Part shown: positions 21,013-62,685 of the stretch, piece by piece
How the letters are laid out: each line of letters starts with the position of its first letter
Numbering within the stretch: position 1 is the stretch's first letter
Assembly (NCBI GenBank): GCA_027028625.1
Contig: JALVIH010000036.1
Span: 1 to 62,685, forward strand
DNA length: 62,685 nucleotides
Direction of reading: 5' to 3'
DNA from: a bacterium
GTDB taxonomy: Bacteria; Patescibacteriota; Microgenomatia; JAADGY01
Program-made: the position numbers and the translations under genes
Notes under the pieces: model-generated
What the model saw: only the letters and a program-made list of their open reading frames with translations
What the model was told of the DNA's origin: nothing
The model's database searches: none

Positions 21013-21567
21013 TAAAATCTGGAACTAGGAACTAGGTTAGAAAATAACAAATCATAAATACCAAGTTCTAAACAAATCCTAAATCCTAAACTCTAATATC
21101 TAAACAAATCCTAAATTCAAATGACCCAAATTCTAAACCTTGTTTCTTGGGTCACCCTGAACGAGCCGTCAGGCGAAGTGAAGGCCCCCCTTCGGTAGGG
21201 GTAAAATCTAGCGAGCGGAGCGAGTGCAAGGATTAGCACCAACGTTCAGAAACACATACATGCGTCTCCGGCTAGACCCCGACAAGTCGGGATGACATGG
21301 AAAAAAGGAAACATGAATTCTTCTCTCTGAGTCATTCTGACCCTCCGGGGCGGAGGGGAAGAATCTAGCGAAGCGCTCTTATTGGTATCTTGTTTGAAAT
21401 TTGATAATTGGAACTTGTTTGAAAATTGGTCATTTTTAACCTAGTTCTTAGTTCCATTTGTGTCCTTGGAATTTATGTTTTAGTGCTTTCTTGCCAAGTT
21501 CTAAGTTCTGAGTTCTGAGTTCCAATAACTAAGTTCCAAGCTCCAAGTTCTAAGTTCTATTTCCAAT
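21013..21567. repeat. mosaic palindromic intergenic cassette A
   Basis: Left GGAACTAGGAACTAGG at 21021-21036, arm-core-arm hairpin at 21151-21296, a truncated second unit from 21331, and a right 9x heptamer array at 21496-21558. Confidence 0.9.
21496..21558. repeat. tandem heptamer array, 9 units (AAGTTCT AAGTTCT GAGTTCT GAGTTCC AATAACT AAGTTCC AAGCTCC AAGTTCT AAGTTCT)
   Basis: Strict 7-nt periodicity read directly from the sequence. Arrays of the complementary GGAACTW orientation bound the left side of cassettes. Confidence 0.9.
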
Positions 21568-22515
21568 TCACTCCTTCAAGGAATGAAATTTCTGATATAC
21601 GTCCCGAAGGCGCTTGTTGGTTACATGGGTGTAAATCTGGGTAGTAGCCAGATTCTTATGCCCCAACAATTCTTGGACAGCCCGGATATCAGCTCCCTGG
21701 GAAAGAAGGTCAGTAGCGAAACTATGCCGCAGACTATGGGGAGTTATCTTCTTGGCCAAACCAGCTTGAAGAGCGTACCTACGGACTATTCTCTCCACAC
21801 TCCGAACTGACAAACGCATCTTCTCCCCTCGATTATAAGGAATAACTTTGCCTCTATGACGAATAAAAAGAGGCTTCCAATCATCTTCCCGCATAAGGAG
21901 GTACTTCTTCAACCACTCTAAGGCTCGAGGCGATAAAAAAACTAAGCGAACCTTCCGCCCTTTGCCAACCACACTAAACTCTCCGGTCTTGAGATCTACA
22001 CTGTCCCTATCTAAACCAACTAACTCTGAAACCCGCAGTCCAGAAGAAAATAAAACCTCTAAAATTGCCTTGTCCCGCACCCCAGATAAAGTAGTAACAT
22101 CCGGACCAGCCAGGAGTTTCTCCACTTCATCTAAACTCAAAAAATTGGGGAGGTGAGGCGATGTTTTGGCTAAAGTTATCTGATCCGGAGTTATCTTAGG
22201 CTTCACTCCCTTTTTAATTAGGAAGCGGAGCAGTCCTCGAAGGGCGATTAAGTAGTAATTCTGAGTCTTAGCGGAAAGAAAAATCTTCCGCCGTTCGTCC
22301 AACATCTTATTAGATAAAAATACCCGGTAAGAATCAATATTCTCCAAGGTGAGATTAGCTAGGGTGGGGGTGTTTACTTTTTTTTCTCCAACTAAAAAAT
22401 CATAAAACTCTCCTAAGTAAGCGCGATAATTCCTTACTGTAAGAGGAGAGTAATTCCGCTCAACTTGAAGATACAAGACAAACTGTTCTATCCAGTAATC
22501 CAACTCTTTAATCAT
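21568..22515 (-). CDS. xerC: tyrosine site-specific recombinase XerC/XerD family
   Basis: C-terminal RHSFATDLLSQGADIRAVQELLGHKNLATTQIYTHV (R-H-R-Y catalytic set) and an N-terminal SAM-like domain. TATAAT at 22521-22526 (minus) lies 5 nt before the ATG. Confidence 0.9.
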   Translation of the reverse strand: MIKELDYWIEQFVLYLQVERNYSPLTVRNYRAYLGEFYDFLVGEKKVNTPTLANLTLENIDSYRVFLSNKMLDERRKIFLSAKTQNYYLIALRGLLRFLIKKGVKPKITPDQITLAKTSPHLPNFLSLDEVEKLLAGPDVTTLSGVRDKAILEVLFSSGLRVSELVGLDRDSVDLKTGEFSVVGKGRKVRLVFLSPRALEWLKKYLLMREDDWKPLFIRHRGKVIPYNRGEKMRLSVRSVERIVRRYALQAGLAKKITPHSLRHSFATDLLSQGADIRAVQELLGHKNLATTQIYTHVTNKRLRDVYQKFHSLKE

Positions 22516-22988
22516 ATCTCATTATATAATCCCCTGAAGGGTGAAGAACTTGGAATAATTGGAACTAGGAACTAGGGGGTTGATTAATTTTAAATTTGAA
22601 ATTTTTAACCTGCCTGCCGGCAGGCAGGTTTTTAATCAAATCAAATTTTAAAATCTTAATATCAAAATTCAATGCCTTCTTTATCGGGTCATCCTGAGGA
22701 GCTGGGGCGACGAAGCCCCCCTTCGGTAGGGGTAAAATCTAGCGAGCAGTAGCGAGCGCAAGGATTAGTACTCAGGCTTGAGTTTACTCTCGTGCGCCTT
22801 CGGCTAGATTCTTCGTCACTTTGGCTCCTCAGGATGACACGAAGAATTATACCCATTATAAAGGTCTAATTACTCGAAAGACAAAAACAAGCACTCACCG
22901 CTCCCGGCTGCTAAAAACACCACCATCAATCGCCTTACATTTTTAGCTTATAATAAAAGAGTATCGCCTGTCAAGAACAAGGGAAATT
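22516..22988. repeat. mosaic palindromic intergenic cassette B
   Basis: Heptamers at 22546-22577, a 24-nt perfect palindrome at 22607-22630, and an arm-core-arm hairpin at 22688-22838. Confidence 0.9.
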
Positions 22989-23504
22989 ATGAATAAAATT
23001 AAACGGCCAGATCTCAAATTATTCTTAATTTTAGAAAACATCAGAAGCCTCTTTAATGTAGGAGCCCTTTTTAGAACAGCTGATGGGGTAGGGGTGTCTA
23101 AAATTCTTCTGGTAGGCTACTCAGGAGTAAAGTTAAACCCCAAGACTAACCAAGCTCAACTTCATCCTCATCTTCATAAAACAGATATGGGGACAACTAA
23201 ATTTGTTCCTTGGCAACACTTTTCCTCCATTCAGGAAGCCATTGATACTCTAAGAAACCAAGAAAAGGAAATAACCATCGCTTCTTTAGAGCAGAACCCT
23301 CAAAGCCACAATCTCCTTACCTATTCACCAACATCACCGGCCTTAGCCCTAATCTTAGGCAATGAAATTATGGGGGTTTCTTCAACAGCCCTCCAGCTTA
23401 GCGATATTATCCTGGAGATCCCCCAATGGGGTAAACACAACTCCCTTAATGTAGCCGTTGCTGGCTCAATCGCTCTCTATCAACTGCTCCGAAATAGTCT
23501 ATAA
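22989..23504 (+). CDS. TrmH/SpoU-family RNA 2'-O-methyltransferase
   Basis: LILGNEIMGVS ... IPQWGKHNSLNVAVAGSIALYQL, the SPOUT knot motifs. Confidence 0.85.
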   Translation: MNKIKRPDLKLFLILENIRSLFNVGALFRTADGVGVSKILLVGYSGVKLNPKTNQAQLHPHLHKTDMGTTKFVPWQHFSSIQEAIDTLRNQEKEITIASLEQNPQSHNLLTYSPTSPALALILGNEIMGVSSTALQLSDIILEIPQWGKHNSLNVAVAGSIALYQLLRNSL

Positions 23505-23511
23505 TCTAAAT

Positions 23512-24950: not shown

Positions 24951-25501
24951 CATTCTATCTCTGTTAAATCGCATAATCGCTTCATTTTGGACCGTTTTTA
25001 AAAAGTAACTATAAACTTAATTATCTTATTTAAAATGGTTTTTAGCATTTTCGGCCAGTTTGACCTTCTTGGCCACATCCGCCAACCAACCCAACCAAAG
25101 GTAGACAAAAAAGATCAACTGGAGAAGAGTTGGAAGAGGAGAAAAAAGAAAAAAAGAAAAATATTTTTGAAAATTCTTTTAATTAAAACAAAAAATAAAC
25201 AATTAATAAAGGCAATCCCCCTTAAGAGGGATCTTGCTATTCGTTCGTAAAATGTATCTTGTGCGACATATTGTTTCTCCTAACCTACTCCCACTAATTG
25301 AACTATTTAAAATAGAGGAGCGGTCAAGGAAAATAAAAAAGAAAATAATTTTAATCGAAGAAAAAGGAAAATTTAGCAAACATTTAAAACTCAATTCCAG
25401 AACTCTCCAACAGTTCCTACAGTTTTACCGCAGCCTTTCACTCGAGAAACTATATCAAAGTATGACAAGAGTTAGCCTTTTAGATTTATAATTAGTAAGT
25501 C

Positions 25502-25575
25502 CGGGGATTAGCTCAGATGGCTAGAGCGCTACGTTCGGGACGTAGAGGTCGGCGGTTCAAGTCCGCCATCCCCGA
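25502..25575 (+). tRNA. tRNA-Pro (anticodon CGG)
   Basis: Cloverleaf read by hand: acceptor CGGGGAT/ATCCCCG, anticodon stem CTACG/CGTAG with loop TTCGGGA, and T-arm GGCGG TTCAAGT CCGCC. No encoded CCA. Confidence 0.9.
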
Positions 25576-25712
25576 CTAAAAAGAAAACTAAAAAAAGTTT
25601 TCCACAATAAGGATAAAGGGTAATTGCGTTGCATTTTTCTTCACGATCCAAAAGATCACTTCTCTCATTCTAGGCACTTCCTACTTTTTATTTTCACAAG
25701 CCGCGTGAAAAT

Positions 25713-25772
25713 ACTATAGGAACATATCCTCCCCACACTATAGGTACATATATTTACTATAGGAACTTATCC
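25713..25772 (+). repeat. three direct repeats ACTATAGGWACWTATMY (25713, 25737, 25756)
   Basis: actataggaacatatcc / actataggtacatatat / actataggaacttatcc, read directly. They lie 70-130 nt upstream of the island promoter. Confidence 0.85.
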
Positions 25773-25844
25773 ATTCTCCCCCCTACCCTCTACAGAGCCG
25801 ACTAAAAAATTTCTCCTTCCGCGAAATCATAAAAAACCATAAAA

Positions 25845-25873
25845 TTGACATATTTAAAAAGGCAAATTATCAT
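25845..25873 (+). promoter_or_regulatory. sigma70-type promoter TTGACA-17-TATCAT, with the ATG 5 nt downstream
   Basis: TTGACA at 25845-25850, TATCAT at 25868-25873, ATG at 25879. Predicts a leaderless transcript. Confidence 0.5.
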
Positions 25874-25878
25874 AATTT

Positions 25879-27180: not shown

Positions 27181-28090
27181 AAAAGCTGGCGATGAAATTA
27201 AAAGGAGAGAGAAAAAAGAAGGAAAACTCACTCCCCATCAAAAAGCTAAAATAATTTTCCAATTAGTTGCTCATTATCCCTATAAATTAACTTATTCCCT
27301 AACTGAAGCTATCAAGAGCCGAGGGTTTGAATGTAACTTAAAAGCTATTATCGCTGCCAGCCTTCTAAGGAAATTAGTCCCTGAAATAAAGGTATTTGGA
27401 GTATTGTCTTTTGGACATGTTTTTTTAGGCTTACAAATAGGGAAAGATATATATATTTTTGACCCCACTAATCACATATTTGAATCGGCACCATCCAGTT
27501 TATCTCAAACAGTACATCAATATATAAAAAGTGGCCAAATAGCTTCTAGGCGAACCACTTATATAATCCCTCCTTCTTATCGTTACATATACTATGAGGT
27601 AGGCCAACCAGAAAAAATATTCTTGAGCTCTCTACTTTATAATATTTCCTCCCTAAATTCAGCCCCCTACCTACAAAAGCAGATTACAGAGTCGAGCATA
27701 AGAATTAATCCACTTCTTGATCTGCCTCTCAATACATTGGGGACTATGTTTTTCGACACAGCCCAGTTCCAGAAAGCGCAAGATTATTACAGAAAAAGTA
27801 CAAGTATAAATCCTCAATACTATAATCCTTATAATAATATTGGTGTTATCTACGATGAGTGAGGAAGATATAATGAAGCAATTAAGTATTATAAAATGGC
27901 CTTGATTCTCAAACCTGCATACTCTTCCCCTTGGGAAAACTTAGCTGATCTTTTCCTTTCTCTTAATGAATATCAGAAAGCGACCATTTGTTATCAAATG
28001 GCACTAAGATATACAAAAGATCCAACCATTAAACAAAACATTTTAGAAAAACTTAAACAAGCAAAGGAAGGCTTACAACATTCTTCTTAA
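27161..28090 (+). pseudogene. transglutaminase-like Cys-His-Asp domain + TPR protein interrupted by an in-frame TGA (27860-27862)
   Basis: A C...H...D spacing (GFECNLKAIIAASLLRKL ... FGHVFLGLQ ... IYIFDPTNH). A TPR repeat runs through the stop in the same frame: NNIGVIYDE*GRYNEAIKYYKMALILKP. Confidence 0.6.
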
Positions 28091-28905
28091 ACACTAATTC
28101 CTACAGGATAAAAAATGTGAGTAAGGTAGTGGTACTCATTGTCCGTATTGAATGGACCCTTGAGATACATCTCAAAGACTGGCGGACTAATAGGTAGCTT
28201 ATTCTTTCTAAAGTAAAGATCCAATTTCCGATAAACCATTGCCAAAAAGCGGTATGGACCAAGAAAGGAAAACCTGTAAGCCGGCCGCCGCTGATATCTT
28301 TCTACTTTAAAACCAGAAGGTAGCTTCTCCTCCTTTACCCTCCCCCCTTTGATGATTAAACCTATCTTCAAATCAGCCTCCAAAGGACTAAAATAAGGCG
28401 TTTGATAAAAGGTAATTTCTAAAGGTTCAAACTTCGCTCCACTTCTATCAGCTACCTCCCATAATAACTTAACATAGTCATTTATCTGATAATAACTCCC
28501 CTTTACTTTATAGGTTAGAAGCTGCCAACCACCAATCCACACCTTCTTTAAGGCTGGCCGTCGACTATTCAAAAATTTATTAAAGGAAAGAATAAAATCT
28601 CTCTTAGCTTGGAGAAGTTTTATCTCCTCATCTAAATTAGCTACCATATCTGAAACTTTTACCTTTCCCCTGCCCTGTTCACCTATCTCCTTTAACCCTA
28701 ACCCTAGCTCTTGTAACCACTTAATCTTTAATACCTTCTCTATTTGATCCAACCGATAATAACGATAGCCAGTCCACTTATCTTGATAATCAGGTTCAAG
28801 AAGTCCTTTTTCCTGCCACAAGCGTAAAGCCCGAGGAGTAGTTAGAGCTACTTTAGCAAACTCTGCTATCCTTAAAAGTTTGACTTGACTTTGACCCTGC
28901 GTCAT
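28087..28905 (-). CDS. MerR-family transcriptional regulator with GyrI-like/effector-binding C-terminal domain
   Basis: N-terminal HTH LLRIAEFAKVALTTPRALRLWQEKGLLEP...GYRYYRLDQIEKVLKIKWLQELGLGLKEI. 272 aa, as in BmrR/TipA-type regulators. Confidence 0.85.
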   Translation of the reverse strand: MTQGQSQVKLLRIAEFAKVALTTPRALRLWQEKGLLEPDYQDKWTGYRYYRLDQIEKVLKIKWLQELGLGLKEIGEQGRGKVKVSDMVANLDEEIKLLQAKRDFILSFNKFLNSRRPALKKVWIGGWQLLTYKVKGSYYQINDYVKLLWEVADRSGAKFEPLEITFYQTPYFSPLEADLKIGLIIKGGRVKEEKLPSGFKVERYQRRPAYRFSFLGPYRFLAMVYRKLDLYFRKNKLPISPPVFEMYLKGPFNTDNEYHYLTHIFYPVGISV

Positions 28906-28942
28906 AGTTTATTATACTCCCACTATGACAGCTATCTATCAA
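28891..28942. promoter_or_regulatory. symmetric bidirectional promoter in a 19-bp divergent gap (core ATTATACT at 28911-28918)
   Basis: Plus strand: TTGACC (28891-96)-16-TATACT (28913-18)-6-ATG (28925). Minus strand: TTGATA (28937-42)-20-TATAAT (28911-16)-5-ATG (28905). An 8-bp dyad GTCATAGT/ACTATGAC (28901-08 / 28922-29) embeds both start codons. Confidence 0.5.
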
Positions 28943-30640
28943 ATTTTAGCCAAAAATGAAAATTTAACTCTGGCCGACTGGCAGGAGTTGGAAAGAAAAA
29001 TAAAACCGTTCACTCGGTCCTTTTCCCTTTTTATCGACATTAAGGATTACAAATTCCATTTCTACCTTTTAACTCCAAAAGATATCTCTTCCTCTCTAGC
29101 TGATCAGTCTCACCTTTTCTTTAAAAAGATTACCGCCCTTCCTCTGCCCCATCATCGACTTCCTCATATTTTCCGCTTGCCTAAGAAAAATCTTTTTGAT
29201 CTTATTACCTATTACCAGTTAAGGAAAAAGGAACAACTAAACCAACTTCTTATCACTTACCATAACTTTCCCTGGCCGTTCTATTTAACTACCTTCTTCC
29301 TAGGCAATTCTTCCAGCACCTTTTTTACCTTTTCTCCTCCCTACCATCTTCTTCAACTCAACTTCAAAAACCACCACACTTTCAAACTCAAGAAGTTGCC
29401 AGACTTTCTCAATCCAGACAAAATACAAACTCTTCTTACCTTCGACTCGAAACTAGCCTTAGCCAAAGTAGACCTCTTCCCATATTTAACTAAACCCGCT
29501 TTCTTCCCTGTTTCTAGTCTTGATTTAGCCAAACACTCCCTCATTGTTGGCCAAACAGGTACTGGTAAATCAAAACTTATCCAACTGATAATCAGCCAAC
29601 TTCTGAATTTTCAGTCTCAGCCTTTTCATATAATTCTTATTGATCCCCACCTAAGGTTAGCTCAACAGCTCCATCTCAACTTTCCTCAGAGAAGCCAGCT
29701 GATTGATTTTATCCACCAAACTGTACCCCTTCTCTCTAGTCTCCATCAACCTCAAACCGCTACGGAACTAACTATTCTTCTTTTTAAAACTTTACTAGCC
29801 AACCAGTTTAATTCTTACCTCCAACGTCTTCTCCGCTACACTCTCTTTACTCTTTACACCACTCAGTCGGCCTCCCTAACCAACCTTTACAAATTTTTAA
29901 CAGATGAGGAATATAAAAACCAGTTAACCAACAAGCTTCCTCAAGATTATCAACATCTAAAACACTTCTTCGACACCGATTTTATTAAGTATCAAACCGC
30001 CTACTATGACATTACTTTTATGCCCCTTATCTCTCTTCTAGAGGAGCTTAATTTTCTCCCCTCCTTCACCTCCTCCAAATCCAAATTATTACCCCTTGAC
30101 AAGACAATCAACACCTACCCTCTGACCCTCTTTGCTCTCGACCAACTGTATCTGGGAAATGCTAACTCCAAACTTATTTCCGGCCTCATTGTTCAACAAA
30201 TCTTCCTCCTGGCTCAGAAAGGAGGACTAACTCACCCAACTCTCCTAATTATTGATGAAGCCCCCTTAGTCGAAAACGAGGCTTTAGCCACCATTCTTTC
30301 CCAGTCACGAAAGTTTAAGCTCTCTATGATTCTCTCCTACCAGTACCTTAGCCAGACTAAACCTAACATCCTTGAATCTATAAAGACAAATGTCTACAAC
30401 TATTTTATCTTCAAAACTTCTGATAACGATGCCAAACTCTTAACTAATCTTATCGAGTTAGACCTAAAAAACAAAACCACTAACCCTATTCATCAAGATC
30501 GCTTTCGAACTCAGATTATCACCTCTCTCAACCCCCGCCAACTGCTTATTCGCCCTTTTTTCGAAAACAAATTTTATCCAGCTTTCAAAGCCGAAACTAT
30601 TGACATTAAAAACTTATTTCCATCAAAAGATGCTAGCTAA
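28925..30640 (+). CDS. FtsK/HerA/TraG-superfamily P-loop NTPase (571 aa) with an unknown 200-aa N-domain
   Basis: Walker A VGQTGTGKS (29549-), Walker B LLIIDEA (30242-30262), then SQSRKFKLSMILSYQYLSQ (the Arg/Gln-rich motif of this superfamily). Amino-acid composition is highly unusual. Confidence 0.75.
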   Translation: MTAIYQILAKNENLTLADWQELERKIKPFTRSFSLFIDIKDYKFHFYLLTPKDISSSLADQSHLFFKKITALPLPHHRLPHIFRLPKKNLFDLITYYQLRKKEQLNQLLITYHNFPWPFYLTTFFLGNSSSTFFTFSPPYHLLQLNFKNHHTFKLKKLPDFLNPDKIQTLLTFDSKLALAKVDLFPYLTKPAFFPVSSLDLAKHSLIVGQTGTGKSKLIQLIISQLLNFQSQPFHIILIDPHLRLAQQLHLNFPQRSQLIDFIHQTVPLLSSLHQPQTATELTILLFKTLLANQFNSYLQRLLRYTLFTLYTTQSASLTNLYKFLTDEEYKNQLTNKLPQDYQHLKHFFDTDFIKYQTAYYDITFMPLISLLEELNFLPSFTSSKSKLLPLDKTINTYPLTLFALDQLYLGNANSKLISGLIVQQIFLLAQKGGLTHPTLLIIDEAPLVENEALATILSQSRKFKLSMILSYQYLSQTKPNILESIKTNVYNYFIFKTSDNDAKLLTNLIELDLKNKTTNPIHQDRFRTQIITSLNPRQLLIRPFFENKFYPAFKAETIDIKNLFPSKDAS

Positions 30641-31370
30641 AGAAGCCTTCCAATTAGTAGATCATGTTTGGAGTTCAATCTTTAACCAGCCAATGCCTTT
30701 TAAACACCTCGAGGAGGTCAAAACAATCCTAGCTGCTTCTATCCCTTTACCTACCCAGGTGAAAACTATCCGCAAGACCACTGCTTATCTTACCCCTACC
30801 TACTTTCCCATACCCAACACCTACTTGGATTATCAAGACCTCAAACCAGCTTCTGTCAAATCCCAACCATCCCCACTTCCTTCACCAGACCAATTTATCA
30901 AGGCTTGGCAGGAAAAAAAGATCTGGGTGGTTAATAAAAACATCAGCTCAGCCAAGATCAGCCAGTCCGATAATGTTTACCAAAGCCAAAATGTTTACAA
31001 CTCTTGTTATGTTTTTAATTCTAAAGACATCATCTTCAGCCGCCAGTTGGGTTCTTGCCAGCGGCTTATTGCCAGTTACAACAATGACTCTTGTACCTCC
31101 AGTATTCGCTTAAGTGACAGTCTCAACTCCTCTTACTGTTTTGAAGTTTCTTGGTCCAATAAAGTTTCCCATTCGATGTTTATCCACAATGGTTACAATC
31201 TTTATGAATGCCTTTTCTGCCAGAATCTCTATTCTAAAAAATACTGCATCGCCAACATCCAGTTTTCCCCTACTGATTACTTCACCCTTAAAGAACAAAT
31301 TATTGCCTACCTAGCTAAAGATAACTGGTCCAACCTTATTCCTTTAATCTCCCCTGCTCGCCGCCGCTAG
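30630..31370 (+). CDS. Cys/Ser/Asn-rich repeat protein (about 246 aa), unknown function
   Basis: The ATG at 30630 overlaps the ATPase stop by 11 nt. The C-terminal half has repeated S/N-x-Y/C patterns with 9 Cys (…NSCYVFNS…GSCQRL…DSCTSS…SSYCFEV…YECLFCQNLYSKKYC…). Confidence 0.55.
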   Translation: MLAKEAFQLVDHVWSSIFNQPMPFKHLEEVKTILAASIPLPTQVKTIRKTTAYLTPTYFPIPNTYLDYQDLKPASVKSQPSPLPSPDQFIKAWQEKKIWVVNKNISSAKISQSDNVYQSQNVYNSCYVFNSKDIIFSRQLGSCQRLIASYNNDSCTSSIRLSDSLNSSYCFEVSWSNKVSHSMFIHNGYNLYECLFCQNLYSKKYCIANIQFSPTDYFTLKEQIIAYLAKDNWSNLIPLISPARRR

Positions 31371-31857
31371 ATAGTTTCCCTAAGAAACGAGCTAAGATAC
31401 CTTTTTTGGGGCTCTCTGGCAAGTGGACAGCTTGTCTTTTCTTAGCCTCCTCTTCCTTCTTTTTTCTTTCTTTCTCTTGCTCTTCAGCCAAACGTTTTCT
31501 CTCTTCTTCTTGAGCTTTCCGCTTTCTATAAGCCTTAATTTCTTCCTGGATTCTGTTGTAGCGGGCAATAATCTGTTTCAAGCGGGCTTCCAACTCAGCC
31601 TTCTTTCTTCTTTGTTCCTCTTGTCTCTTCCTTTCTTCGGGTGATAAAACCTTTTGAGATGTACTACTTCTACTTTTCCCCTGCCCTACTCCTTCCTGAC
31701 CACCTCCACCTTGACTATTACTTTTTTCCATTAACTCACTCAAGAGTTTATTCAAATCAGCTGGCGGTTGGTTTTGGCCACCAGAAGAATCGCTCTTCCC
31801 CTCTTCAATCGCTGTCGGCGGCTTCAAACCACCGCCCCCCATCGTCCCATTAGTCAT
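31336..31857 (-). CDS. low-complexity protein: Gly/Ser/Gln-rich N-terminal half plus Lys/Glu/Arg coiled-coil
   Basis: 173-codon ORF directly downstream of the 429-aa gene. Composition is biased, so the coding status is less certain. Confidence 0.45.
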   Translation of the reverse strand: MTNGTMGGGGLKPPTAIEEGKSDSSGGQNQPPADLNKLLSELMEKSNSQGGGGQEGVGQGKSRSSTSQKVLSPEERKRQEEQRRKKAELEARLKQIIARYNRIQEEIKAYRKRKAQEEERKRLAEEQEKERKKKEEEAKKRQAVHLPESPKKGILARFLGKLSSGGEQGRLKE

Positions 31858-31863
31858 AGTTCA

Positions 31864-33153
31864 TTATATCTGTTTCCAACGTAAGGGCAAACACCTAGTT
31901 TTAAAATTAACCAATACTTCGTCATTTGGCTTAAAAGTATAATATCCGCTTAATCCACCTGCTGTTTTTTCCTGTCCCCACTGAGCCAGGGAAAAATTAT
32001 CTGTATAGCTATCTATATGAGTTCTGCCCCAATCCTCTCTCCCCGCCCGTTTAGCTATCTCTTCCCATTCTTCCTTTTCTTTTTCTGGAACTACTAATCG
32101 CAAATGGCGTAATGGTATTTCGCAACCACGTGGGTTTTCTTCTCTGTAGCTATCCGCAAAAATATGGATCTCGGGTGTAGAATTATGACCTGTAGTATTA
32201 GGAAAATAAACAAATTTATAATCTTCTGCTAATTGAGGAATCGTAGTTGTAAAAAATATAATAGGAATACTCTCTCTAGCAAATTTACCATAAGGCATAA
32301 CACTACCAAATGAAAAAGAAATATGTGGTAAAACCCTCCCCTCATATTTATCTTTAATAGGCGCAGTTTGAATTACTTTTCCACCCATTTCTCTCTGTCG
32401 GAGAGCGGATTTTAAAGAACCTTCTTCAATAACCCGTCTAACTATTTCTTCATCTCCAGGAACATGGATCAAAGGCGTTTCCTGAAACCTTTTACACCAC
32501 TCAAAAAAATTTCTTCTATATCCTTCCCATGCCCAATCTTCATTGTTAATTCTTTTAAGAAACCTAATAATCAACTGATCATCGTCATCACCTAATACTT
32601 TATATAACCTTTGTATCTCTTGAGATAATTTATTCAATTCCTTTATTTGCTGTTCTGAAGGAACAATAATTGGAGGATGTCGATAAATTCCTTCCCCATG
32701 CACATCTAAATTAAAAAAGCGATTTTGAAGATCAGTCACTTTATGCGACGGCCAATAACTCCATTCTTCATCTGAAAGGAATTTTCTCAACCGTTTCCAA
32801 AAAATAAAATTAAGACGACTTTGTAATTGTTTTAATACTTCTTCCTTTCTTCCCCTAGTAAGAAATAACTTTTCTTTCCAACTCCTTGGATGAATTTCCC
32901 TTTTTAACAAAATTCCAACAGCTCTTTTTAGAATGGCGTCAGAAAAGCCATTTCCCCATAACTTCTCTGCAATATTTTCCACTTCTTTTTTACCTACCTG
33001 GGTATTATAATCAGGAGACAAAAATGGTTCAAAAATAGCTCTAATCCTCTGTACAAAAAGCTCCGCCGGCATACTAAGCGGCTCCGATCCAATTAAAAGT
33101 TCTATCTTTTCCTCCCCTTTTACTTCCTCTGGGTATTCACTCCTTTTTATCAT
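31864..33153 (-). CDS. hypothetical protein (429 aa)
   Basis: Long uninterrupted ORF with balanced composition. No recognisable motif. Confidence 0.65.
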   Translation of the reverse strand: MIKRSEYPEEVKGEEKIELLIGSEPLSMPAELFVQRIRAIFEPFLSPDYNTQVGKKEVENIAEKLWGNGFSDAILKRAVGILLKREIHPRSWKEKLFLTRGRKEEVLKQLQSRLNFIFWKRLRKFLSDEEWSYWPSHKVTDLQNRFFNLDVHGEGIYRHPPIIVPSEQQIKELNKLSQEIQRLYKVLGDDDDQLIIRFLKRINNEDWAWEGYRRNFFEWCKRFQETPLIHVPGDEEIVRRVIEEGSLKSALRQREMGGKVIQTAPIKDKYEGRVLPHISFSFGSVMPYGKFARESIPIIFFTTTIPQLAEDYKFVYFPNTTGHNSTPEIHIFADSYREENPRGCEIPLRHLRLVVPEKEKEEWEEIAKRAGREDWGRTHIDSYTDNFSLAQWGQEKTAGGLSGYYTFKPNDEVLVNFKTRCLPLRWKQI

Positions 33154-33719
33154 TACCTTAAATTTTACACCGATAATATCTTTTCCTCCATTTCATCCTG
33201 AGTTATCGGGATGTAGCCAAAGGCGCGGGGGATTGGAACTTGGAGCTTGGAATTCAGAACCTAGTCGAAAAGAAGAAGACTTAGCCAGTCTAGAGTAAGT
33301 AAGAGCTTAGAAAAAACTTGGATACCAGTACCTTTGCGCTCGCTTCCGCTCGCTAGATCCCGACAAGTCGGGATGACATGGAGAAATAGGTATGCCTTCT
33401 CCTCGAGTCATCCTGAACGAGCCGTCAGGCGAAGTGAAGGATCTAGCCGAAGGCGCACGAGAGTAAACCAAAGCCTGAGTGCTAATCCTTGCGCTCGCTA
33501 TTGCTCGCTAGATCCTTCGTCGCTCTGGCTCCTCAGGATGACTTCCTAAAAAAGGTTTTTATTTGGTTGTTGGAATTTATGTTTTAGTGCTTTCTTGCCA
33601 AGTTCTAAGTTCTAAGTTCCAAGCTTTAAGATCATCACACTCTCGAAGAGTGATAAATCACACTTCGGGAGAGTGATTTATTCAAGTTCCAAGTTCCGAT
33701 TACCTAGTTCCTAGTTCCT
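33154..33719. repeat. mosaic palindromic intergenic cassette C
   Basis: Heptamers at 33231-33262, a variant core at 33288-33377, an arm-core-arm hairpin at 33407-33542, heptamers at 33598-33630, a 46-bp palindrome at 33631-33682, and heptamers at 33684-33719. Confidence 0.9.
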
Positions 33720-35481: not shown

Positions 35482-35552
35482 TTGCCGGGCAGGGATTCGA
35501 ACCCCGAATGACTGGTCCAGAGCCAGCCGTGATACCATTTCACCACCCGGCA
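35482..35552 (-). tRNA. tRNA-Gln (anticodon CTG)
   Basis: Minus-strand cloverleaf: acceptor TGCCGGG/CCCGGCA (U1:A72, typical of bacterial tRNA-Gln), anticodon stem GCTGG/CCAGT with loop CTCTGGA, and T-loop TTCGAAT. Confidence 0.85.
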
Positions 35553-35575
35553 GGATATTCTATTATACTTAAAAG

Positions 35576-37603: not shown

Positions 37604-37604
37604 C

Positions 37605-38438: not shown

Positions 38439-38439
38439 C

Positions 38440-39855: not shown

Positions 39856-39972
39856 AAACCAATTTTAGCAGATTAGTGCTTCTTTACCTACTAAAAAGAG
39901 CTACCTCCCAGTTGGATTACCATAAGGAAAAGAATCAGCCACAAGACAAGAAAAATTAAGAAAAACTCCAAC

Positions 39973-51689: not shown

Positions 51690-52220
51690 AACTTCTTATT
51701 TTAACAAAGAAATCAACTTTCAGCTACAAGAAATCAGAACTTGGAACTTGGAGCTTGGAACTCGGTAAAAAAATGACCAATTATCAATGATCAATTTTCA
51801 AACAAATTCCAAGCACCAATAATCAAAGTTCAAAACCTTTTTAGGGGGTCATTCTGAGCCCCAGCGAAGAATCTAGCGAAGCGCAAAGTTGCTGGCATCC
51901 AAGCTTAAGTAGACACTCGTGCGCCTATCGGCTAGATTTTACCCCTACCGAAGGGGGGCTTCGTCGCCTCAGCTCCTCAGGATGACTCAGTATTAAATTC
52001 CAAGCACCAAATTCCAAGAAACAAACCCCCCTTCGGTAGGGGTAAAATCTAGCCGATAGGCGCATGAGAGTGAACTCAAGCGTTGGAGCTGATCCTTGCG
52101 CTCGCTCCGCTCGCTAGATCCCGACAAGTCGGGATGAGGCGGGGGGACAAGAAAGCAGCTTCTTAGGATAATGGGGAAACAAGCCAAAAAAATACCGATA
52201 GAGGCTATAATAAAGGAGTT
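51690..52220. repeat. mosaic palindromic intergenic cassette H
   Basis: Heptamers at 51734-51765, an arm-core-arm hairpin at 51848-51986, and a second inverted core unit at 52026-52136. Confidence 0.9.
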
Positions 52221-54349: not shown

Positions 54350-54913
54350 CTAGTCTTCCTCTAAATGGTTAAGTTTGGGGTAACATTTCGGGCAACAAGC
54401 TCCATAGAGATCAGCCCCACCAACTACCACTTGGCCTTGGCGTGGCTTCTTCCGATAACTTAAAGTTGCCTTACCACCGCAGCCATCACAAATAGCATAG
54501 AGCTGGACTACCTCATCAGCATACCGCCGCAGATGGTGAATGGGGCCGAAAACCTGGCGGCGATAATCATACTCTAGTCCGGCTAGAAAAACAGTTCTTC
54601 CTTTTTCTAGCCAAAACTGCAGTTGGGGCCATAGATTAGAAAAAGAAAAGAAGTTAACCTCATCTAGAAAAAGATACTCATATTTGGAATCATAAAGCTG
54701 AATCAAGTCACTTCTACTCTTTTCATCAACTATCTGGGCAGATAACTTAAGGTGGTCGTGGCTGACTATTGCCTTTTTGCTATAACGACTGTCCAGTTGC
54801 GGCTTAACAATCAGTACCTTCTCTTCCCCCAATTTGGTAGCTTGATTAATAAGATAGGTGGTCTTGCCAGCAAACATTGGCCCAATAATTAAAACAAGCT
54901 TCCCTTTTTTCAT
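54350..54913 (-). CDS. tdk: thymidine kinase
   Basis: Walker A GPMFAGKTT, with C-terminal Zn ribbon CDGCGG...CCPKC. The ATG at 54913 is preferred over the TTG at 54949. Confidence 0.9.
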   Translation of the reverse strand: MKKGKLVLIIGPMFAGKTTYLINQATKLGEEKVLIVKPQLDSRYSKKAIVSHDHLKLSAQIVDEKSRSDLIQLYDSKYEYLFLDEVNFFSFSNLWPQLQFWLEKGRTVFLAGLEYDYRRQVFGPIHHLRRYADEVVQLYAICDGCGGKATLSYRKKPRQGQVVVGGADLYGACCPKCYPKLNHLEED

Positions 54914-54949
54914 TCCTTTTATTATGAAAAAGCCCCCTCCAAAAGTCAA

Positions 54950-55232
54950 TTATTGAAGCTGGAACTAGGAGCTAGGTTAAAAAATAACCAAATTCCAAAT
55001 TCCAAGAAACAAACAAGGTCTAAATCTCAATGTTCCAAACTTAACTTAATTTTCATTATTTTTGATCATTGGTTATTGTTATTTGTTTGTATCCTTGGAG
55101 TTTGATACTTGGAATTTAATACTGAGTCATCCTGAACGAGCCGCCAGACGAAGTGAGGACCCCCTTCGGTAGAGGTAAAATCTAGGCTGAAGGCGCAGGG
55201 GTTGGAACTTAATCTTGAAGCCTAGAACTTAT
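54950..55232. repeat. mosaic palindromic intergenic cassette I (truncated)
   Basis: Heptamers at 54959-54977, inverted A/T modules, and a left arm plus partial core at 55126-55200. Heptamers at 55202-55231 are in the same orientation as the left end. Confidence 0.85.
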
Positions 55233-56009: not shown

Positions 56010-56381
56010 ATAGTATATTATATATAAATTGTCAAAAGGGAGTCATTCTCAGAAACCAGAGCGACGAAGGATCTAGCAAAACGCAAAGATTTTGAATCCT
56101 ACACCTAGGAATACACTCATGCGCCTCCGGCTAGATTCTTCCCCTCCGCTTCGGGGGGTCAGAATGACACAAAAGACAAAGTTTTGGAGCTAATAGCAAA
56201 AATGTGTTGATTTTTTGCTATTAGCTCAAGTTTTGGATTTTGGTATTTGTGTTTTGGTGCTTTCTTACTGAGTTCCAAGTTCCGAGTTCCAAGTGCTGTT
56301 TTATTTGAAAATTGGTCATTGATAATTGGTCATTTTTACTGAGTTCTATTTCCCCCAGTGTTGTAAAATTAGGTATTGCTA
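56010..56381. repeat. mosaic palindromic intergenic cassette J
   Basis: An arm-core-arm hairpin at 56052-56168, a hairpin gctaatagcaaaaa...tttttgctattagc at 56189-56226, and heptamers at 56269-56296. Confidence 0.9.
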
Positions 56382-60701: not shown

Positions 60702-60703
60702 AA

Positions 60704-61487: not shown

Positions 61488-61497
61488 ACTACCTCCT

Positions 61498-61779
61498 TTA
61501 ATCTTCCTTTGTTACTAACAAATGACGCAAATATCCCTTATTATTTAGATAAAAGAAACGGTTTATTTTAGCTGCTAAATCCATATCCTTCTTCGTCTGA
61601 AGGGAAAAGAAAGAATAATTAGCTTTTAGCTGCTTTTTTATTGGGTAAGCAAGAGACTTCACTCCTAATGACCGAGTTTCTTTTATCTCTACTTTTTCCT
61701 TAGCCAATTCTGTTTTTAATTGTTCAATTAACCCCTTGCTGTTGACGGTGGTTAAAACAACTAATTCATATTTTTTCAT
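61498..61779 (-). CDS. rpsF: 30S ribosomal protein S6
   Basis: MKKYELVVLT..., 93 aa, first gene of the rpsF-ssb-rpsR order. GGAGGA Shine-Dalgarno upstream. Confidence 0.88.
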   Translation of the reverse strand: MKKYELVVLTTVNSKGLIEQLKTELAKEKVEIKETRSLGVKSLAYPIKKQLKANYSFFSLQTKKDMDLAAKINRFFYLNNKGYLRHLLVTKED

Positions 61780-61832
61780 TCAATCCTCCAACTCACACAT
61801 AGAGAGTATATCATAGCCTAGCAAAATACTAC

Positions 61833-62483
61833 CTAAGCCAATCCAAAAAAGATAACTACTCCTAAACCAATTAACAAAATACTCCAGCTAAGCGTCGAGG
61901 TAAATAAGGATGATGGCCCTGTAACTGGCAAAGTTGGGGTCGCTGAGGCTGAACTAGTTGGCGAGGCTGAAGCAGTGCTTAAGCTAGATGTGGAGGAAGT
62001 AGTAATAGTATAAGTTCCGCCACTTACTGTTGCCAGAATGTCCTGATTATTTGAGGTAACATTAGAGTCATCTGTTGAACCCTGAGTAAAAACAAAAGTT
62101 ACCGGAGCTTGACCAGTTGCTAGAGCCTTAAAAGTAATAGTAGCTATCTTATCTACTCCCGTAAATGTTCCTGATGAAGTAGTTAAGTTAATATGTAAGG
62201 TCCCTTTAGGGCTGTCTTGAACCGAAACATTAGGAAAACTAGTGGTAGCTGTAGTTTTAATGTACTCTAACTTCGTAGTGGGATAGTTTAAAACAACATC
62301 AACACTTGAAACAGCTGCTCCATCAGTGTCTAGATTAACATCAACAGCTAAATTATCTCCTACTTCTACTGTTTTAGTTTTGGGTGACAAGGAAAGAGAA
62401 GCATCCGCAGCTAGAGCTGCCGAAGCAAAAGAAGTAAGAAATAAAAATACCAAGGCTAATCCAAAAACAAACTTTCTTTTCAT
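61833..62483 (-). CDS. secreted cohesin-domain surface protein with LPVTG sorting-like motif
   Basis: A signal peptide, a cohesin-like beta domain (LAVDVNLDTDGAAVSSVDVVLNYPTTKLEY...), a Ser/Thr linker, and LPVTG followed by a hydrophobic tail with no basic end. Confidence 0.6.
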   Translation of the reverse strand: MKRKFVFGLALVFLFLTSFASAALAADASLSLSPKTKTVEVGDNLAVDVNLDTDGAAVSSVDVVLNYPTTKLEYIKTTATTSFPNVSVQDSPKGTLHINLTTSSGTFTGVDKIATITFKALATGQAPVTFVFTQGSTDDSNVTSNNQDILATVSGGTYTITTSSTSSLSTASASPTSSASATPTLPVTGPSSLFTSTLSWSILLIGLGVVIFFGLA

Positions 62484-62685
62484 TCAACCACCTATTAGTT
62501 TTAATCTACCTTCTTTTAATAATATCGTCAAGACCCCCCCTTACTTAATTTTTAATTTGAAATTTGAAATTTTTAATTACCTAATTATCAAAGCTCGGAA
62601 CTCAGTCTCAGAACTTGGAACTCAGTTTATCTGGAACTAGGAACTAGGTAATCGGAACTTGGAACTTATAACTTAGCTTGTTAGG
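62484..62685. repeat. mosaic palindromic intergenic cassette K (cut by the window end)
   Basis: An A/T module aatttttaatttgaaatttgaaatttttaatt at 62545-62578 and GGAACT-type heptamers at 62593-62675. Confidence 0.85.

Follow-up and report, generated by a model that had tools for sequence, protein, structure and literature searches.

Hairpins of the Ssn-related motif class as probable building blocks of mosaic intergenic cassettes in a Microgenomates bacterium

Single-strand nuclease targets and eleven filled gaps

Ssn-related motifs (SRM), which include NTS/dRS3 of Neisseria, serve as targets for Ssn, a GIY-YIG single-strand nuclease (Chenal et al. 2025, PMC11893778). [quoted passage not shown] The Neisseria NTS reads CGTCATTCCCGCGMAVGCGGGAATCYRG and NTSvar reads CGTCATACTCGGGNNNNNCCCGAGTATC, the GTC upstream being critical for cleavage and the C after the palindrome for binding (PMC11893778). 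SRM measure 20–50 nt and occur in clusters between genes; an SRM adjoins 71% of ssn genes, and 42% are flanked by SRM on both sides, symbionts are over-represented among SRM-rich genomes, and in Neisseria transformation cutting by Ssn has been shown to limit or pattern homologous recombination (PMC11893778). The same paper underlines a parallel with REP/REPIN elements, for which the definition in PMC3116915 and PMC3337134 was used when architectures were compared.

The stretch of DNA analysed here (the window; 62,685 nt) comes from an ultra-small CPR bacterium of the Microgenomates. CPR bacteria are generally held to be episymbionts. The window's genes are as tightly packed as a preceding sequence-only reading had claimed, with 32 of 58 junctions overlapping or shorter than 25 bp and a median intergenic distance of ~6–7 bp; type IV pilus or competence-type genes lie at 7819–12459. 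The eleven mosaic-filled gaps reported to interrupt this arrangement were all recovered at their coordinates by an ORF map combined with tRNA calls, and their sum, given as ~4.9 kb or ~8% of the window, was measured at 4,916 bp (7.84%). When the gaps were compared with the window by self-BLAST, their repeats recurred only inside gaps, bar two tiny A/T-rich matches (5216–5248 and 17121–17157), and the repeat observation is confirmed as real. According to the ORF map, the cassettes filling the gaps are placed between transcription units only, and occupy divergent promoter gaps as well as 3' ends.

Such mosaics might arise if collapsed repeats had been joined into chimeras during assembly of a short-read MAG, and a Logan contig (L001) does end inside cassette 8, as many contigs of a related MAG, S014_63, terminate in the repeat units described below. 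However, a second assembly (ENA scaffold JOHN19-1_SAMN10217872 scaffold_460) was gapless and 99.945% identical to window positions 27720–40373, a span that includes three cassettes and in which only one of seven mismatches falls in a cassette. Furthermore, S014_63, which derives from another sample, bears cassettes at orthologous sites whose edges are the same, and an assembly artefact is accordingly considered extremely improbable.

Anatomy and composition of the cassettes

The units of 115–150 nt found in the cassettes consist of two inverted hairpins, here called arms, flanking a core of ~65 nt. Across 144 arms from the window and Microgenomates loci, the consensus is (T)GTC-AT[Y]CT-GA-[variable stem-loop]-GA-AG[R]AT-CTAG(C), that is, (T)GTC, a 5-bp stem half AT[Y]CT, a GA/GA internal loop around a variable inner stem-loop, AG[R]AT and C-TAG(C). 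Folded singly, each arm type gave one common shape (5-bp stem, 2x2 GA loop, inner stem), and both GTC and ATCTAG were present in 22/22 window arms. The window holds 10 full cores; no two of the 49 cores compared were identical in sequence, which indicates that most copies are not recent. The features are listed below, with strands for units and the solo arm; arm types are lettered a to e.

21013–21567, cassette 1: between convergent genes, NTPase (+) and Xer-like integrase (-); outer GGAACTA heptamers, A-rich heptamers, full unit, truncated unit, then T-rich and AAGTTCY arrays; orthologous cassette present in S014_63
21151–21296, +, unit: core 21208–21275 (+); left arm b with inserted mini-hairpin (21151–21211), right arm e (CCCGACAAGTCGGGATGAC)
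21331–21376, +, solo arm d in cassette 1: GTCATTCTGA-CCCTCCG..CGGAGGG-GAAGAATCTAG, truncated core
22516–22988, cassette 2: divergent gap, integrase/SpoU methylase; half-cassette with heptamers, 24-nt GC palindrome (22607–22630) and one unit; unique promoter-side stretch retained beside SpoU
22688–22838, +, unit: core 22739–22807 (+); arms a and a, mini-hairpin in the left; ssDNA fold z = -7.0
33154–33719, cassette 3: between tandem minus-strand genes; heptamers at both edges, half core with arm e (33353–33377), full unit, ATCAC double hairpin (33634–33680); identical sequence in the second assembly
33407–33542, -, unit: left arm b, core 33443–33511 (-), right arm a
35046–35481, cassette 4: between a peroxiredoxin gene and tRNA-Gln; heptamers, ATCAC double hairpin (35137–35180), one unit, 9-mer array ACTTTATGA (35420–35465)
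35291–35404, +, unit: arm c, core 35316–35383 (+), arm e
35651–36159, cassette 5: between tRNA-Arg and RluA; GC palindrome (35696–35715), mini-hairpin (35738–35753), second GC hairpin (35782–35806), one unit, ATCAC double hairpin (36096–36139), edge heptamers
35847–35997, +, unit: arm a with mini-hairpin, short-type core 35899–35961 (+), arm b
41970–42482, cassette 6: between tandem minus-strand genes; GGAACTA heptamers (42007–42040), GC palindrome (42064–42087), one unit, solo palindromic arm e (42317–42342), mini-hairpin (42383–42398)
42152–42288, +, unit: arm a, core 42183–42252 (+), arm b; arm types unlike, long hairpin weak (z = -1.6)
46597–47072, cassette 7: between tandem plus-strand genes, signal peptidase and Na+/H+ exchanger; heptamers at both edges, half core with arm e (46729–46753), one unit
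46811–46928, -, unit: arm c, core 46835–46897 (-), arm a
51690–52220, cassette 8: divergent gap, L31/HIT; heptamers and A-rich blocks, then two units; synteny with S014_63 ends here
51848–51986, +, unit 1: arm c, short-type core 51873–51935 (+), arm a with mini-hairpin
52027–52138, -, unit 2: left arm replaced by a mini-hairpin (CCCCCCTTCGGTAGGGGTAAA-ATCTAGC), core 52049–52117 (-), right arm e
54950–55232, cassette 9: between tandem minus-strand genes, thymidine kinase and an unknown ORF; heptamers, ~140 bp A/T-rich palindrome, arm b with mini-hairpin (55126–55185), truncated core fused to GGAACTT
56010–56381, cassette 10: divergent gap, unknown ORF/tRNA-Leu; one unit, then T-rich and AGTTCCA arrays and a TTGAAAATTGGTCATTGATAATTGGTCA block
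56042–56168, +, unit: degenerate arm a (GTCATTCTCAGA..), core 56073–56134 (+), arm d
62484–62685, cassette 11: cut by the contig end; A/T-rich and GGAACTW heptamer arrays alone visible

The left edge of cassette 9 may start ~36 bp earlier, because the thymidine kinase homologues found are shorter (183–192 aa, the two closest both 187 aa) than the TTG-started ORF of 199 aa in the window.

A module census, counting matches within cassettes over all matches in the window, showed that the listed modules are confined to cassettes: 19/19 tandem GRARCTN heptamer pairs, 10/10 A-rich AAATYC pairs, 8/8 copies of the mini-hairpin CCCCYTTYGGTAGRGG, 5/5 GC palindromes, 9/9 ATCAC hairpins and 10/10 copies of CCCGACWWGTCGGG. 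The exception is TTGGTCA, which loses its standing as a cassette module, since 15 of its 19 window copies lie outside. The core pattern ATCTAGCCGN{2,3}GGCGCAYGAG was observed 9 times in the window (expected 0.00), and Tandem Repeats Finder bore out the period-7 arrays at the cassette edges. The proposed mosaic of shuffled palindromic modules with a BIME-like logic thus holds as a structural description, with some adjustments. One or two arm-core-arm hairpins had been assigned to every cassette; a complete unit occurs in 9 of 11, the unit at 54950–55232 being truncated and 62484–end showing heptamers only because the contig stops there. About half of the cassettes are the giant imperfect palindromes described, but four (22516–22988, 35046–35481, 54950–55232 and 56010–56381) are half-cassettes. 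The supposed C(UUCG)G-capped stem has, when folded, 5 bp and a loop of 5 nt.

Turnover between relatives and pairing within the arms

Contents of the cassettes differ between the window and S014_63 at the same sites, where the proteins are 90–97% identical: a unit is inverted and ~65% identical (hand count over aligned cores), and just one of the two genomes carries a GC palindrome and ~150 bp of arrays. The thymidine kinase site has a truncated core and a right edge common to both, with the arm type swapped. The sequence-only reading had allowed that the elements are mobile, a proposal that would have suffered had relatives carried the same cassette everywhere; given this turnover in close relatives, it is not refuted.

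S014_63 contains ~28 loci with cores, many at contig ends, and three of these (L007, L011 and L034) have identical 127-nt ends. Such near-identical copies, which break the assembly, would suit ordinary nested MITEs that descend from a DDE-type insertion sequence, younger copies having landed in older ones and the arms serving as terminal inverted repeats read as double-stranded DNA. Nested and partial copies do occur, and arm pairs enclose unrelated cores in many genomes, much as terminal inverted repeats enclose variable filler. However, no target-site duplications were seen at the units, whose flanks show a preferred T...A, and no DDE transposase was found between arm pairs at any locus or in the window. 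Moreover, the two arms of a unit often differ in type (same 36, different 41, i.e. uncorrelated), and every arm by itself forms a conserved hairpin whose stems covary, a property for which terminal inverted repeats have no need. The MITE explanation is therefore regarded as very unlikely.

This covariation is found inside the single arm and not between left and right arms; as long hairpins, units with unlike arms fold only weakly (z -1.6 to -2.5). At outer-stem position 3, the pairs were CG 61, TA 50, CA 4 and TG 1 (Fisher 7e-27), with 9 double changes within arm types, and the metagenome arms, retrieved with a search pattern that admitted all four combinations at this position, gave CG 66, TA 41, CA 2 and TG 0 (5e-28). 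In the inner stem, positions one and two were paired in 91% and 76% of arms, against at most 75% and 57% in shuffles, and several pair types occurred. Core covariation did not rise above shuffles.

Double changes that maintain hairpin pairing would also be expected of host cis elements that act through RNA or on transcription, be it as terminators, insulators, stabilisers of mRNA or small structured RNAs, and that are selected and not mobile. The restriction of cassettes to the borders of transcription units and their conserved positions in related genomes are compatible with this, and some units fold far better than shuffles (z down to -7). E. coli REP/BIME elements have such secondary roles. 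Rfam gave no match, even at E = 1, single mismatches in the arms showed no G.U strand bias, cores lie in either orientation relative to flanking genes, and the contents of cassettes change between close relatives. The structured RNA suggested earlier is not supported, as covariation confined to the arms is what a ssDNA hairpin target leads one to expect, SsnA being inactive on RNA. Nor do bidirectional terminators fit, since by inspection no consistent T-runs follow the hairpins and divergent promoter gaps are filled as well. Taken as a whole, host cis elements appear unlikely.

Likeness to Ssn targets and the small GIY-YIG genes

As in SRM/NTS, the window arms keep both the GTC preceding the palindrome and the C that follows, and arm type e (GTCATCCCGACTTGTCGGGATCTAG) is nearly the Neisseria NTS. 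Unlike published SRM, the arms are longer and their stem is interrupted, and the published degenerate SRM string HGTCWYN(0-2)YYVSBRHN(0-5)WNVSBRGN(0-2)RNCYNB had 0 matches in the window.

The same arm was found in at least 120 metagenome contigs (28–68% GC) with unrelated cores. In 150 arm-flanking ORFs, GIY-YIG ranked with the commonest Pfam families (25 families listed of 181). When 1.05 Mb of fetched DNA was searched with a profile, six small GIY-YIG ORFs emerged, none of them more than 160 bp from an arm (6/6; rough P 2e-5) and four bracketed as arm(+)...ORF...arm(-). In one of them (L087), the CTAG of the right arm supplies the stop codon, and the flanking sequences GAAGCGTAAA and TTTACGCTTC resemble the window core ends, a likeness of ~12–14 nt only. 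NCBIfam offered no name for the arm-bracketed ORFs. The earlier statement that no named family matches is thus superseded for the key module, whose arms have the defining oriented flanks of SRM and bracket small GIY-YIG genes; on sequence likeness, the best reading is that the hairpin building blocks belong to the SRM class of Ssn targets, here in an unexpected CPR host.

Inverted hairpin doublets could alternatively be copied via a single-strand intermediate by an HUH tyrosine transposase (RAYT or IS200/IS605 TnpA), domesticated and single-copy elsewhere in the genome, as for REP/REPIN-type elements. In architecture the two agree: imperfect palindromes are oriented and have a conserved 5' flank, form inverted doublets with a spacer between them, and gather in extragenic mosaic clusters. 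The window arm flank, however, is GTCAT and not GTAG, matching the NTS positions critical for Ssn, the recurring nuclease family beside arms is GIY-YIG with no Y1_Tnp among the 25 families listed of 181, and the window yielded neither a Y1 nor a HUH gene. Movement by an HUH transposase therefore seems quite unlikely.

We consider it moderately probable that the cassettes represent SRM units without an ORF, piled up in the manner of NIMEs or BIMEs within heptamer arrays specific to this lineage. In each non-coding unit, a short DNA hairpin of the SRM class would be the active part, and an inverted arm pair with its ~65-nt core may be an ORF-less miniature of the autonomous-looking arm, putative ssn gene, arm arrangement found on metagenome contigs. 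Recombination or gene conversion between copies, possibly initiated by Ssn cutting, could spread or overwrite them, swapping arm types, flipping units and adding or deleting modules, with sites staying fixed at operon borders, where a tightly packed genome would tolerate insertions. The 62.7 kb of the window contain no GIY-YIG or ssn gene, and the only small GIY-YIG gene found in S014_63 (L020), which shares 25% identity with the arm-bracketed type, adjoins tRNA-Gln without arm bracketing; the genome presumably encodes a cognate Ssn elsewhere. If the hairpin and nuclease biochemistry known from Neisseria and Wolbachia carries over, the window arms would be cut, and ssDNA, incoming or exposed in replication or repair, would be cleaved at operon borders. 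Such cleavage could limit or pattern homologous recombination, as in Neisseria transformation, and might bear on DNA uptake.

Heptamer arrays, GC palindromes and ATCAC hairpins, which make up about half of the cassette DNA, fall outside what the Ssn model accounts for, and outside the Microgenomates their association with arms is weak (7/132 vs 49/2400). The heptamer arrays are real, and are treated here as lineage-specific, slippage-prone simple repeats that may travel with, or attract, units. At one locus (L029), a solo unit stands free of heptamers.

Repeat cassettes in the intergenic gaps

The window covers a contig over its full 62,685 bp and comes from an uncultured member of the Microgenomates (CPR/Patescibacteria). 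Its gene content is that of an ordinary chromosome (gyrase, DnaB, ProRS, RF1, L31, L9, SSB, signal peptidases, thymidine kinase and peroxiredoxin), together with four tRNAs and a type IV pilus or competence-type cluster. Its GyrB shares 60-63% identity with proteins from Microgenomates, Gottesmanbacteria, Levybacteria and Beckwithbacteria, and 78-82% with those of closer relatives. The median intergenic distance is a few bases. The eleven gaps that a sequence-only reading had described as filled by one family of mosaic palindromic cassettes (here numbered 1-11 from left to right) were all found in place; together they take up 4,916 bp (7.84% of the window). CPR/Patescibacteria genomes measure about 1 Mb and are tightly packed, and because of this it is unexpected that roughly 8% of a 62-kb stretch should be spent on repeats.

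Self-BLAST placed the repeated DNA in these eleven gaps and, two tiny A/T-rich matches at 5216-5248 and 17121-17157 aside, nowhere else in the window, and in a module census every definable module proved exclusive to the cassettes.

Module census (matches in cassettes out of all matches in the window)
Tandem GRARCTN heptamers: 19 of 19
A-rich AAATYC heptamers: 10 of 10
Mini-hairpin CCCCYTTYGGTAGRGG: 8 of 8
24-nt GC palindrome: 5 of 5
ATCAC hairpins: 9 of 9
CCCGACWWGTCGGG: 10 of 10

A 19-base core pattern occurred nine times where none was expected, and the cassette edges carry arrays with a period of seven. The possibility that the cassettes are assembly chimeras is contradicted by an ENA scaffold from another assembly, which is 99.945% identical to the window with zero gaps over 12.65 kb including three cassettes, and likewise by S014_63, a related MAG from another sample, in which cassettes with matching edges occupy matching sites. 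The cassettes are thus a real and well-defined feature, although the initial description required some adjustment. It had assigned one or two arm-core-arm units to each cassette, which holds for the nine of eleven with a complete unit, while one cassette holds a truncated unit and the contig stops within the last; about half are palindromic overall, rather than every one being a giant palindrome; and the stem described as UUCG-capped folds with a loop of 5 nt.

The long gap at 24951-25878 holds tRNA-Pro and is free of any cassette module. Between 25000 and 33000 the GC content is lowered (0.34-0.39) and the GC skew strongly negative, down to -0.53; this region is a possible island and encodes a MerR-family protein, a HerA/DUF87-type ATPase and several ORFs without a Pfam match. 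The thymidine kinase ORF at 54350-54949 (minus strand) is listed with a TTG start and 199 aa. Since the homologues found are shorter (183-192 aa, the two closest both 187 aa), its start probably lies about 36 bp downstream, and cassette 9 would therefore be slightly longer than stated.

Arm-core-arm units and their hairpins

Ten units, spread over nine cassettes, were found in the window. Each measures 114-151 nt and consists of a left arm, CTAGC, a core of approximately 62-70 nt, GCTAG and an inverted right arm. The units had initially been viewed as long arm-to-arm hairpins, but the data favour the single arm as the structural unit. The two arms of a unit were of the same type in 36 cases and of different types in 41, and units with unlike arms folded barely better than shuffled sequence. 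A single arm, by comparison, folds as a hairpin of its own. It opens with (T)GTC and one half of a 5-bp stem, AT[Y]CT; next comes a variable inner stem-loop with GA on either side, and AG[R]AT and CTAG(C) close the arm. Arms are 25-56 nt long and fall into five types (a-e), set apart by the inner hairpin, and for each type the minimum-free-energy fold is a hairpin. The mini-hairpin is either inserted in an arm or substitutes for one.

The pairing of the outer stem is maintained by covariation within an arm, as the Y/R position was CG in 61, TA in 50 and mismatched in 5 cases among the Microgenomates loci, and CG in 66, TA in 41 and mismatched in 2 in an unbiased metagenome sample. Similarly, the inner stem stays paired at its first positions although the base pairs found there vary widely, pairing being preserved by double changes. 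The arms are also oriented: all 22 window arms begin with GTCA[T/C] and every one ends in TCTAG, mostly ATCTAG, while the base preceding GTC was T in 60 of 77 metagenome units. An inverted partner was present for 77 of 123 metagenome arms, giving a median unit length of 104 bp. In six metagenome loci (L140, L156, L117, L053, L081 and L114) the arms instead follow one another head to tail, with a copy every 36-70 bp or so, or are present as repeated 5' half-arms, and this tandem layout replaces the inverted pairs.

The core is conserved in sequence, yet its covariation does not exceed that of shuffles. When 49 cores were assessed as a structured RNA by RNAalifold and pair counting, the stems were invariant and the central hairpin was no better than in shuffled controls. 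A search of the whole window against Rfam at the gathering threshold returned only tRNAs and noise, as did a relaxed search of two cassette regions and nine metagenome loci, with E values up to 1 for the window and 0.1 for the loci. The absence of core covariation and the restriction of Rfam matches to tRNAs led us to reject the reading of the core as a structured non-coding RNA. Other identities were also rejected. A hammerhead or K-turn, suggested by the GUC, CUGA.GA and GAA elements of the arm, lacks stem I and a 3-nt bulge on inspection; and a sigma-E-type promoter composed of GGAACTT and TCTGA has the wrong spacing. A MITE derived from a DDE insertion sequence is unlikely, as no target-site duplication was found, the ends showing only a T...A preference, and as the two arms of a unit are often of unlike types.

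Distribution and turnover between relatives

Among 185,579 species representatives searched, the core pattern was confined to a few Microgenomates-type MAGs.

Occurrences of the core pattern
S014_63: about 28 loci, many at contig ends
S016_97: core pattern present
T11 Shapirobacteria MAG: core pattern present
L016 (JALWAP010000149, binned as Anaerolineae): complete Microgenomates-type unit with flanking heptamers

The last of these contigs is probably misbinned CPR DNA. Six further matches (L008, L017, L023, L025, L026 and L027) lie in coding DNA without arms and were set aside as chance matches. The arm pattern is much wider than the core pattern, with at least 120 metagenome loci on contigs of 28-68% GC from soil, sediment, marine and gut samples. 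These share the arm-CTAGC-core-GCTAG-arm architecture and have unrelated cores. The arm pattern gave no matches in viral contigs and the whole unit none in plasmids, and literature searches on CPR repeats and MITEs and on the arm sequence returned nothing relevant.

In the syntenic stretches of the window and S014_63, whose proteins are 90-97% identical, cassette positions persist while their content is rewritten. Cassettes stand on both sides of a Xer-like integrase in both genomes with a common outer edge, but the unit is inverted in S014_63 relative to the window and the cores are about 65% identical (manual count of aligned cores), with a GC palindrome present in S014_63 only and about 150 bp of heptamer arrays in the window only. 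The two genomes agree at the thymidine kinase site in their right edge and in having a truncated core, whereas the arm is of type c in one and of type b with a mini-hairpin in the other, and the window carries an extra palindrome of approximately 140 bp. Upstream of HIT, the break in synteny between window and S014_63 falls exactly at the cassette. More distant genomes differ further, as a relative with 73% protein identity carries heptamers and another hairpin at the orthologous site, without the arm-core-arm unit, and in a relative with 61% identity the gaps are short. S014_63 additionally holds one solo unit without heptamers, and several of its contig ends share an identical 127-nt stretch of the unit, pointing to near-identical copies.

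Mobility, as proposed from the sequence, would not leave identical cassettes at every orthologous site, and the content indeed differs between the window and S014_63. The persistence of positions combined with rewriting of content is a better fit to recombination or gene conversion among copies, possibly with fresh insertion, than to a fixed regulatory sequence. Gene order breaks exactly at cassettes or solo units, in the HIT case where the window at 51690-52220 is compared with 3696-4776 of the S014_63 locus L164, and likewise at 2614-3762 in the comparison with L029, which suggests that the repeats mediate rearrangements.

GIY-YIG genes beside the arms and comparison with known systems

A Pfam scan of 150 ORFs adjoining arms in metagenome loci revealed GIY-YIG as one of few recurring families. 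When a small-GIY-YIG profile was searched against all six-frame ORFs of 1.05 Mb of fetched DNA, six small ORFs were found, each no farther than 160 bp from an arm (approximate chance probability 2e-5), and four of the six were bracketed as arm(+)...ORF...arm(-). All arm-associated GIY-YIG proteins are single-domain and approximately 86-105 aa long. In the metagenome locus L087, GGAAGCGTAAAATAAATTTA-ATG comes after the left arm, while the right arm supplies the stop codon with its CTAG. No GIY-YIG gene was found in the window, and the one found in S014_63 (L020) shares only 25% identity with the arm-bracketed type and is not bracketed by arms. This 86-aa gene (L020 2729-3400, WFRL01000021) directly follows tRNA-Gln(ttg) and precedes a duplicated tRNA 3' half, an arrangement that resembles insertion at a tRNA gene. 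Some 160 bp farther downstream begins a cassette that includes an arm-core-arm unit.

Other candidate partner enzymes were sought around the repeats. No transposase was found between distant arm pairs and the unknown ORFs adjoining cassettes had no Pfam match. A RAYT (Y1/HUH) gene was found among none of the 59 window ORFs (the L31 ORF having been identified by comparison rather than by the scan), and Y1_Tnp was absent among the best 25 of 181 families for arm-adjacent ORFs. The XerC/D-type tyrosine recombinase at 21568-22515 (minus strand) has cassettes on both sides, an arrangement shared with S014_63, where the protein is 91.7% identical. It is a standard, syntenic enzyme of its type, no evidence pointed to a role in the system, and it was rejected as the partner. 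In Neisseria, dRS3 has been reported as a phage recombinase target (PMC11893778), and by analogy a link between a Xer-type recombinase and the arm repeats is conceivable.

The arm-bracketed GIY-YIG arrangement matches the published layout of Ssn, a small GIY-YIG single-strand-DNA nuclease, and its hairpin target, the Ssn-related motif (SRM). The Neisseria version of the target, the Neisseria Transformation Sequence (NTS) CGTCATTCCCGCGMAVGCGGGAATCYRG, contains the old dRS3 repeat; SsnA, a 94-aa GIY-YIG protein, binds it only as ssDNA and on one strand, and cuts a few nt upstream; cutting depends above all on the GTC before the palindrome, and binding above all on the C that immediately follows (PMC11893778). 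Motifs lie beside 71% of ssn genes and on both sides of 42%, symbionts are over-represented among genomes that hold more than 300 motifs, and in N. meningitidis the system lowers the integration of motif-carrying transforming DNA (PMC11893778). The main text of that study (Chenal et al., Nat Commun 2025) does not mention CPR or Microgenomates (PMC11893778).

Like SRMs, which measure 20-50 nt, the arms are short hairpin-forming inverted repeats, oriented by a 5' (C/T)GTCAT flank with GTC before the palindrome (cf. NTS CGTCAT...) and followed directly by ATC-YRG, with the C immediately after the palindrome (3' flank ATCYRG). The two further share hundreds of clustered intergenic copies, a position on one or both sides of small GIY-YIG genes, for the arms in metagenome contigs, and enrichment in symbiont genomes. 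The window arms have TGTCAT, the palindrome and ATCTAG in common, and type e (GTCATCCCGACTTGTCGGGATCTAG) is nearly an NTS. The published SRM string HGTCWYN(0-2)YYVSBRHN(0-5)WNVSBRGN(0-2)RNCYNB nevertheless had no matches on either strand of the window (null mean 0.2), because the stem is longer, interrupted by GA/GA and joined to a long variable inner hairpin in all arm types but one; that exception, type e, misses it at one position. Since the literal string fails, we file the arms as a variant SRM class rather than as plain members. Two further differences are that the arms form arm-core-arm units set in heptamer arrays, and that the window holds no ssn gene. The sequence-only reading had matched the cassettes to no named family, a view superseded by the assignment of their central module to the SRM family described in 2025. 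What is new here is the structural variant, the host group and the composite form of the cassettes.

The Neisseria intergenic mosaic elements (NIMEs), described by Parkhill and colleagues in 2000, reportedly consist of RS units of 50-150 bp between dRS3 inverted repeats. They are likewise short repeats bounded by inverted NTS/dRS3-type hairpins, stacked in intergenic mosaics beside variable genes, and the dRS3 sequence ATTCCC-N8-GGGAAT (PMC11893778) resembles the arm stem ATTCT..AGAAT. In contrast, the cassettes add heptamer arrays, GC palindromes and double hairpins and flank housekeeping rather than surface-protein genes; the cores appear unrelated in sequence. The BIME-like logic that had been proposed for the cassettes was borne out, as the units are inverted doublets with a spacer in mosaic extragenic clusters. 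E. coli REP/BIME/REPIN elements similarly comprise imperfect palindromes with an oriented flank, arranged as inverted doublets in inter-operon mosaics with other motifs (PMC3116915, PMC3337134), and in both systems one trans-acting enzyme that recognises ssDNA hairpins is presumed to be required. They differ in that REPs have a GTAG flank and a HUH/Y1 transposase (RAYT), its gene usually single-copy with repeats on its flanks, whereas the arms have GTCAT on the GA strand, GCTAG on the other strand and a GIY-YIG gene, and in that REPs are species-specific while genomes ranging from 28 to 68% GC share a conserved arm sequence. In fungal mitochondria, mobile double-hairpin elements and GC clusters are linked to GIY-YIG endonuclease ORFs. 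This resembles the present case in combining small palindromic or hairpin repeats in the intergenic DNA of a compact genome with GIY-YIG endonuclease genes, but the elements are organellar and unrelated in sequence, and the endonucleases are multi-domain homing enzymes.

Taken with the published biochemistry, these likenesses make it probable that the cassettes are NIME/BIME-like pile-ups of ORF-less SRM units at operon borders. An Ssn-type nuclease, with its gene elsewhere in the genome, would then recognise the arms as hairpins in single-stranded DNA. Leftover flanks of the ssn gene are the probable origin of the cores, with CTAGC-GAAGCG.. to one side and ..GCGCCTTCGG-CTAG opposite (cf. L087), and cuts followed by repair between copies would shuffle the arms. 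For the host, the likely effect would be ssDNA cutting at operon borders, shaping the recombination of incoming DNA; the window itself encodes competence-type pilus genes. What was observed directly is the anatomy, covariation, distribution and turnover of the repeats and their link to GIY-YIG genes. That this genome encodes a cognate Ssn-type enzyme is inferred, as is any part played in DNA uptake, and ssDNA binding and cutting by such an enzyme are drawn from the literature (PMC11893778).

If the arms are Ssn targets, the Ssn/SRM system would reach CPR bacteria. Their presumed reliance on a host cell and on taken-up DNA fits the reported symbiont enrichment of SRM-rich genomes. A large class of SRMs with GA/GA-interrupted stems, present on at least 120 metagenome contigs, would then escape the published search motif, and current censuses would therefore be underestimates. 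The arm-core-arm units, with their exchange of arm types at fixed sites, would moreover offer a concrete picture of the turnover of such repeats and explain why assemblies of these MAGs break into pieces with repeats at their ends. New pairs of Ssn and hairpin would also mean new site-specific ssDNA nucleases for biotechnology. A more far-reaching reading, which we consider unlikely, is that the cassettes are a dedicated architecture of some episymbiotic Microgenomates, placing Ssn-type cut sites at nearly every operon border so that DNA exposed during repair or imported via the competence pilus is cut into operon-sized pieces and recombines unit by unit, with the heptamers serving a second factor as platforms for binding or spacing. 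This would constitute a new Ssn variant with an interrupted-stem hairpin class that the published motif misses, and no system for controlling recombination would have been described in CPR bacteria before it.

About half of each cassette consists of heptamer arrays (GGAACTW outside, A-rich units inside), GC palindromes and ATCAC double hairpins, which the Ssn model does not explain. These modules recur in other Microgenomatia, including the Shapirobacteria MAG; outside this lineage their link to arms, including that of the heptamer arrays to SRM arms, is weak. Cyanobacterial STRRs have the units CCCCAGT, TTGGTCA (STRR2) and CAACAGT. An STRR identity was rejected, as the arrays are built from GGAACTW, AAATCCT and AATTCCA, and TTGGTCA, which is not specific to the cassettes, lies mostly outside them. 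Intergenic heptanucleotide repeats also include TAACTGA of Beggiatoaceae, Cyanobacteria and Bacteroidetes in addition to STRR, and heptamers are the commonest class of long simple sequence repeats, with polymerase slippage proposed as their source (PMC4679880 and work cited therein). The cassette heptamers resemble these repeats in kind only, being short 7-nt tandem arrays that are exclusively intergenic and sporadic across phyla. They differ in their units, in their fixed order from outside to inside and in forming inverted pairs around hairpin units.

Two further modules were observed. The S014_63 module AGTCYTACCYAATTGAAAAATCGGACTGAAATTAAT, not present in the window, lies upstream of two unrelated genes (L029 ~1855-1900 and L164 ~4690-4730). 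At window 35420-35465, L164 4720-4776 and L020 ~3360-3420, the units are accompanied by a separate 9-mer array family (ACTTTATGA / AAGTTCATAAAGT), which the window genome thus has in common with S014_63.
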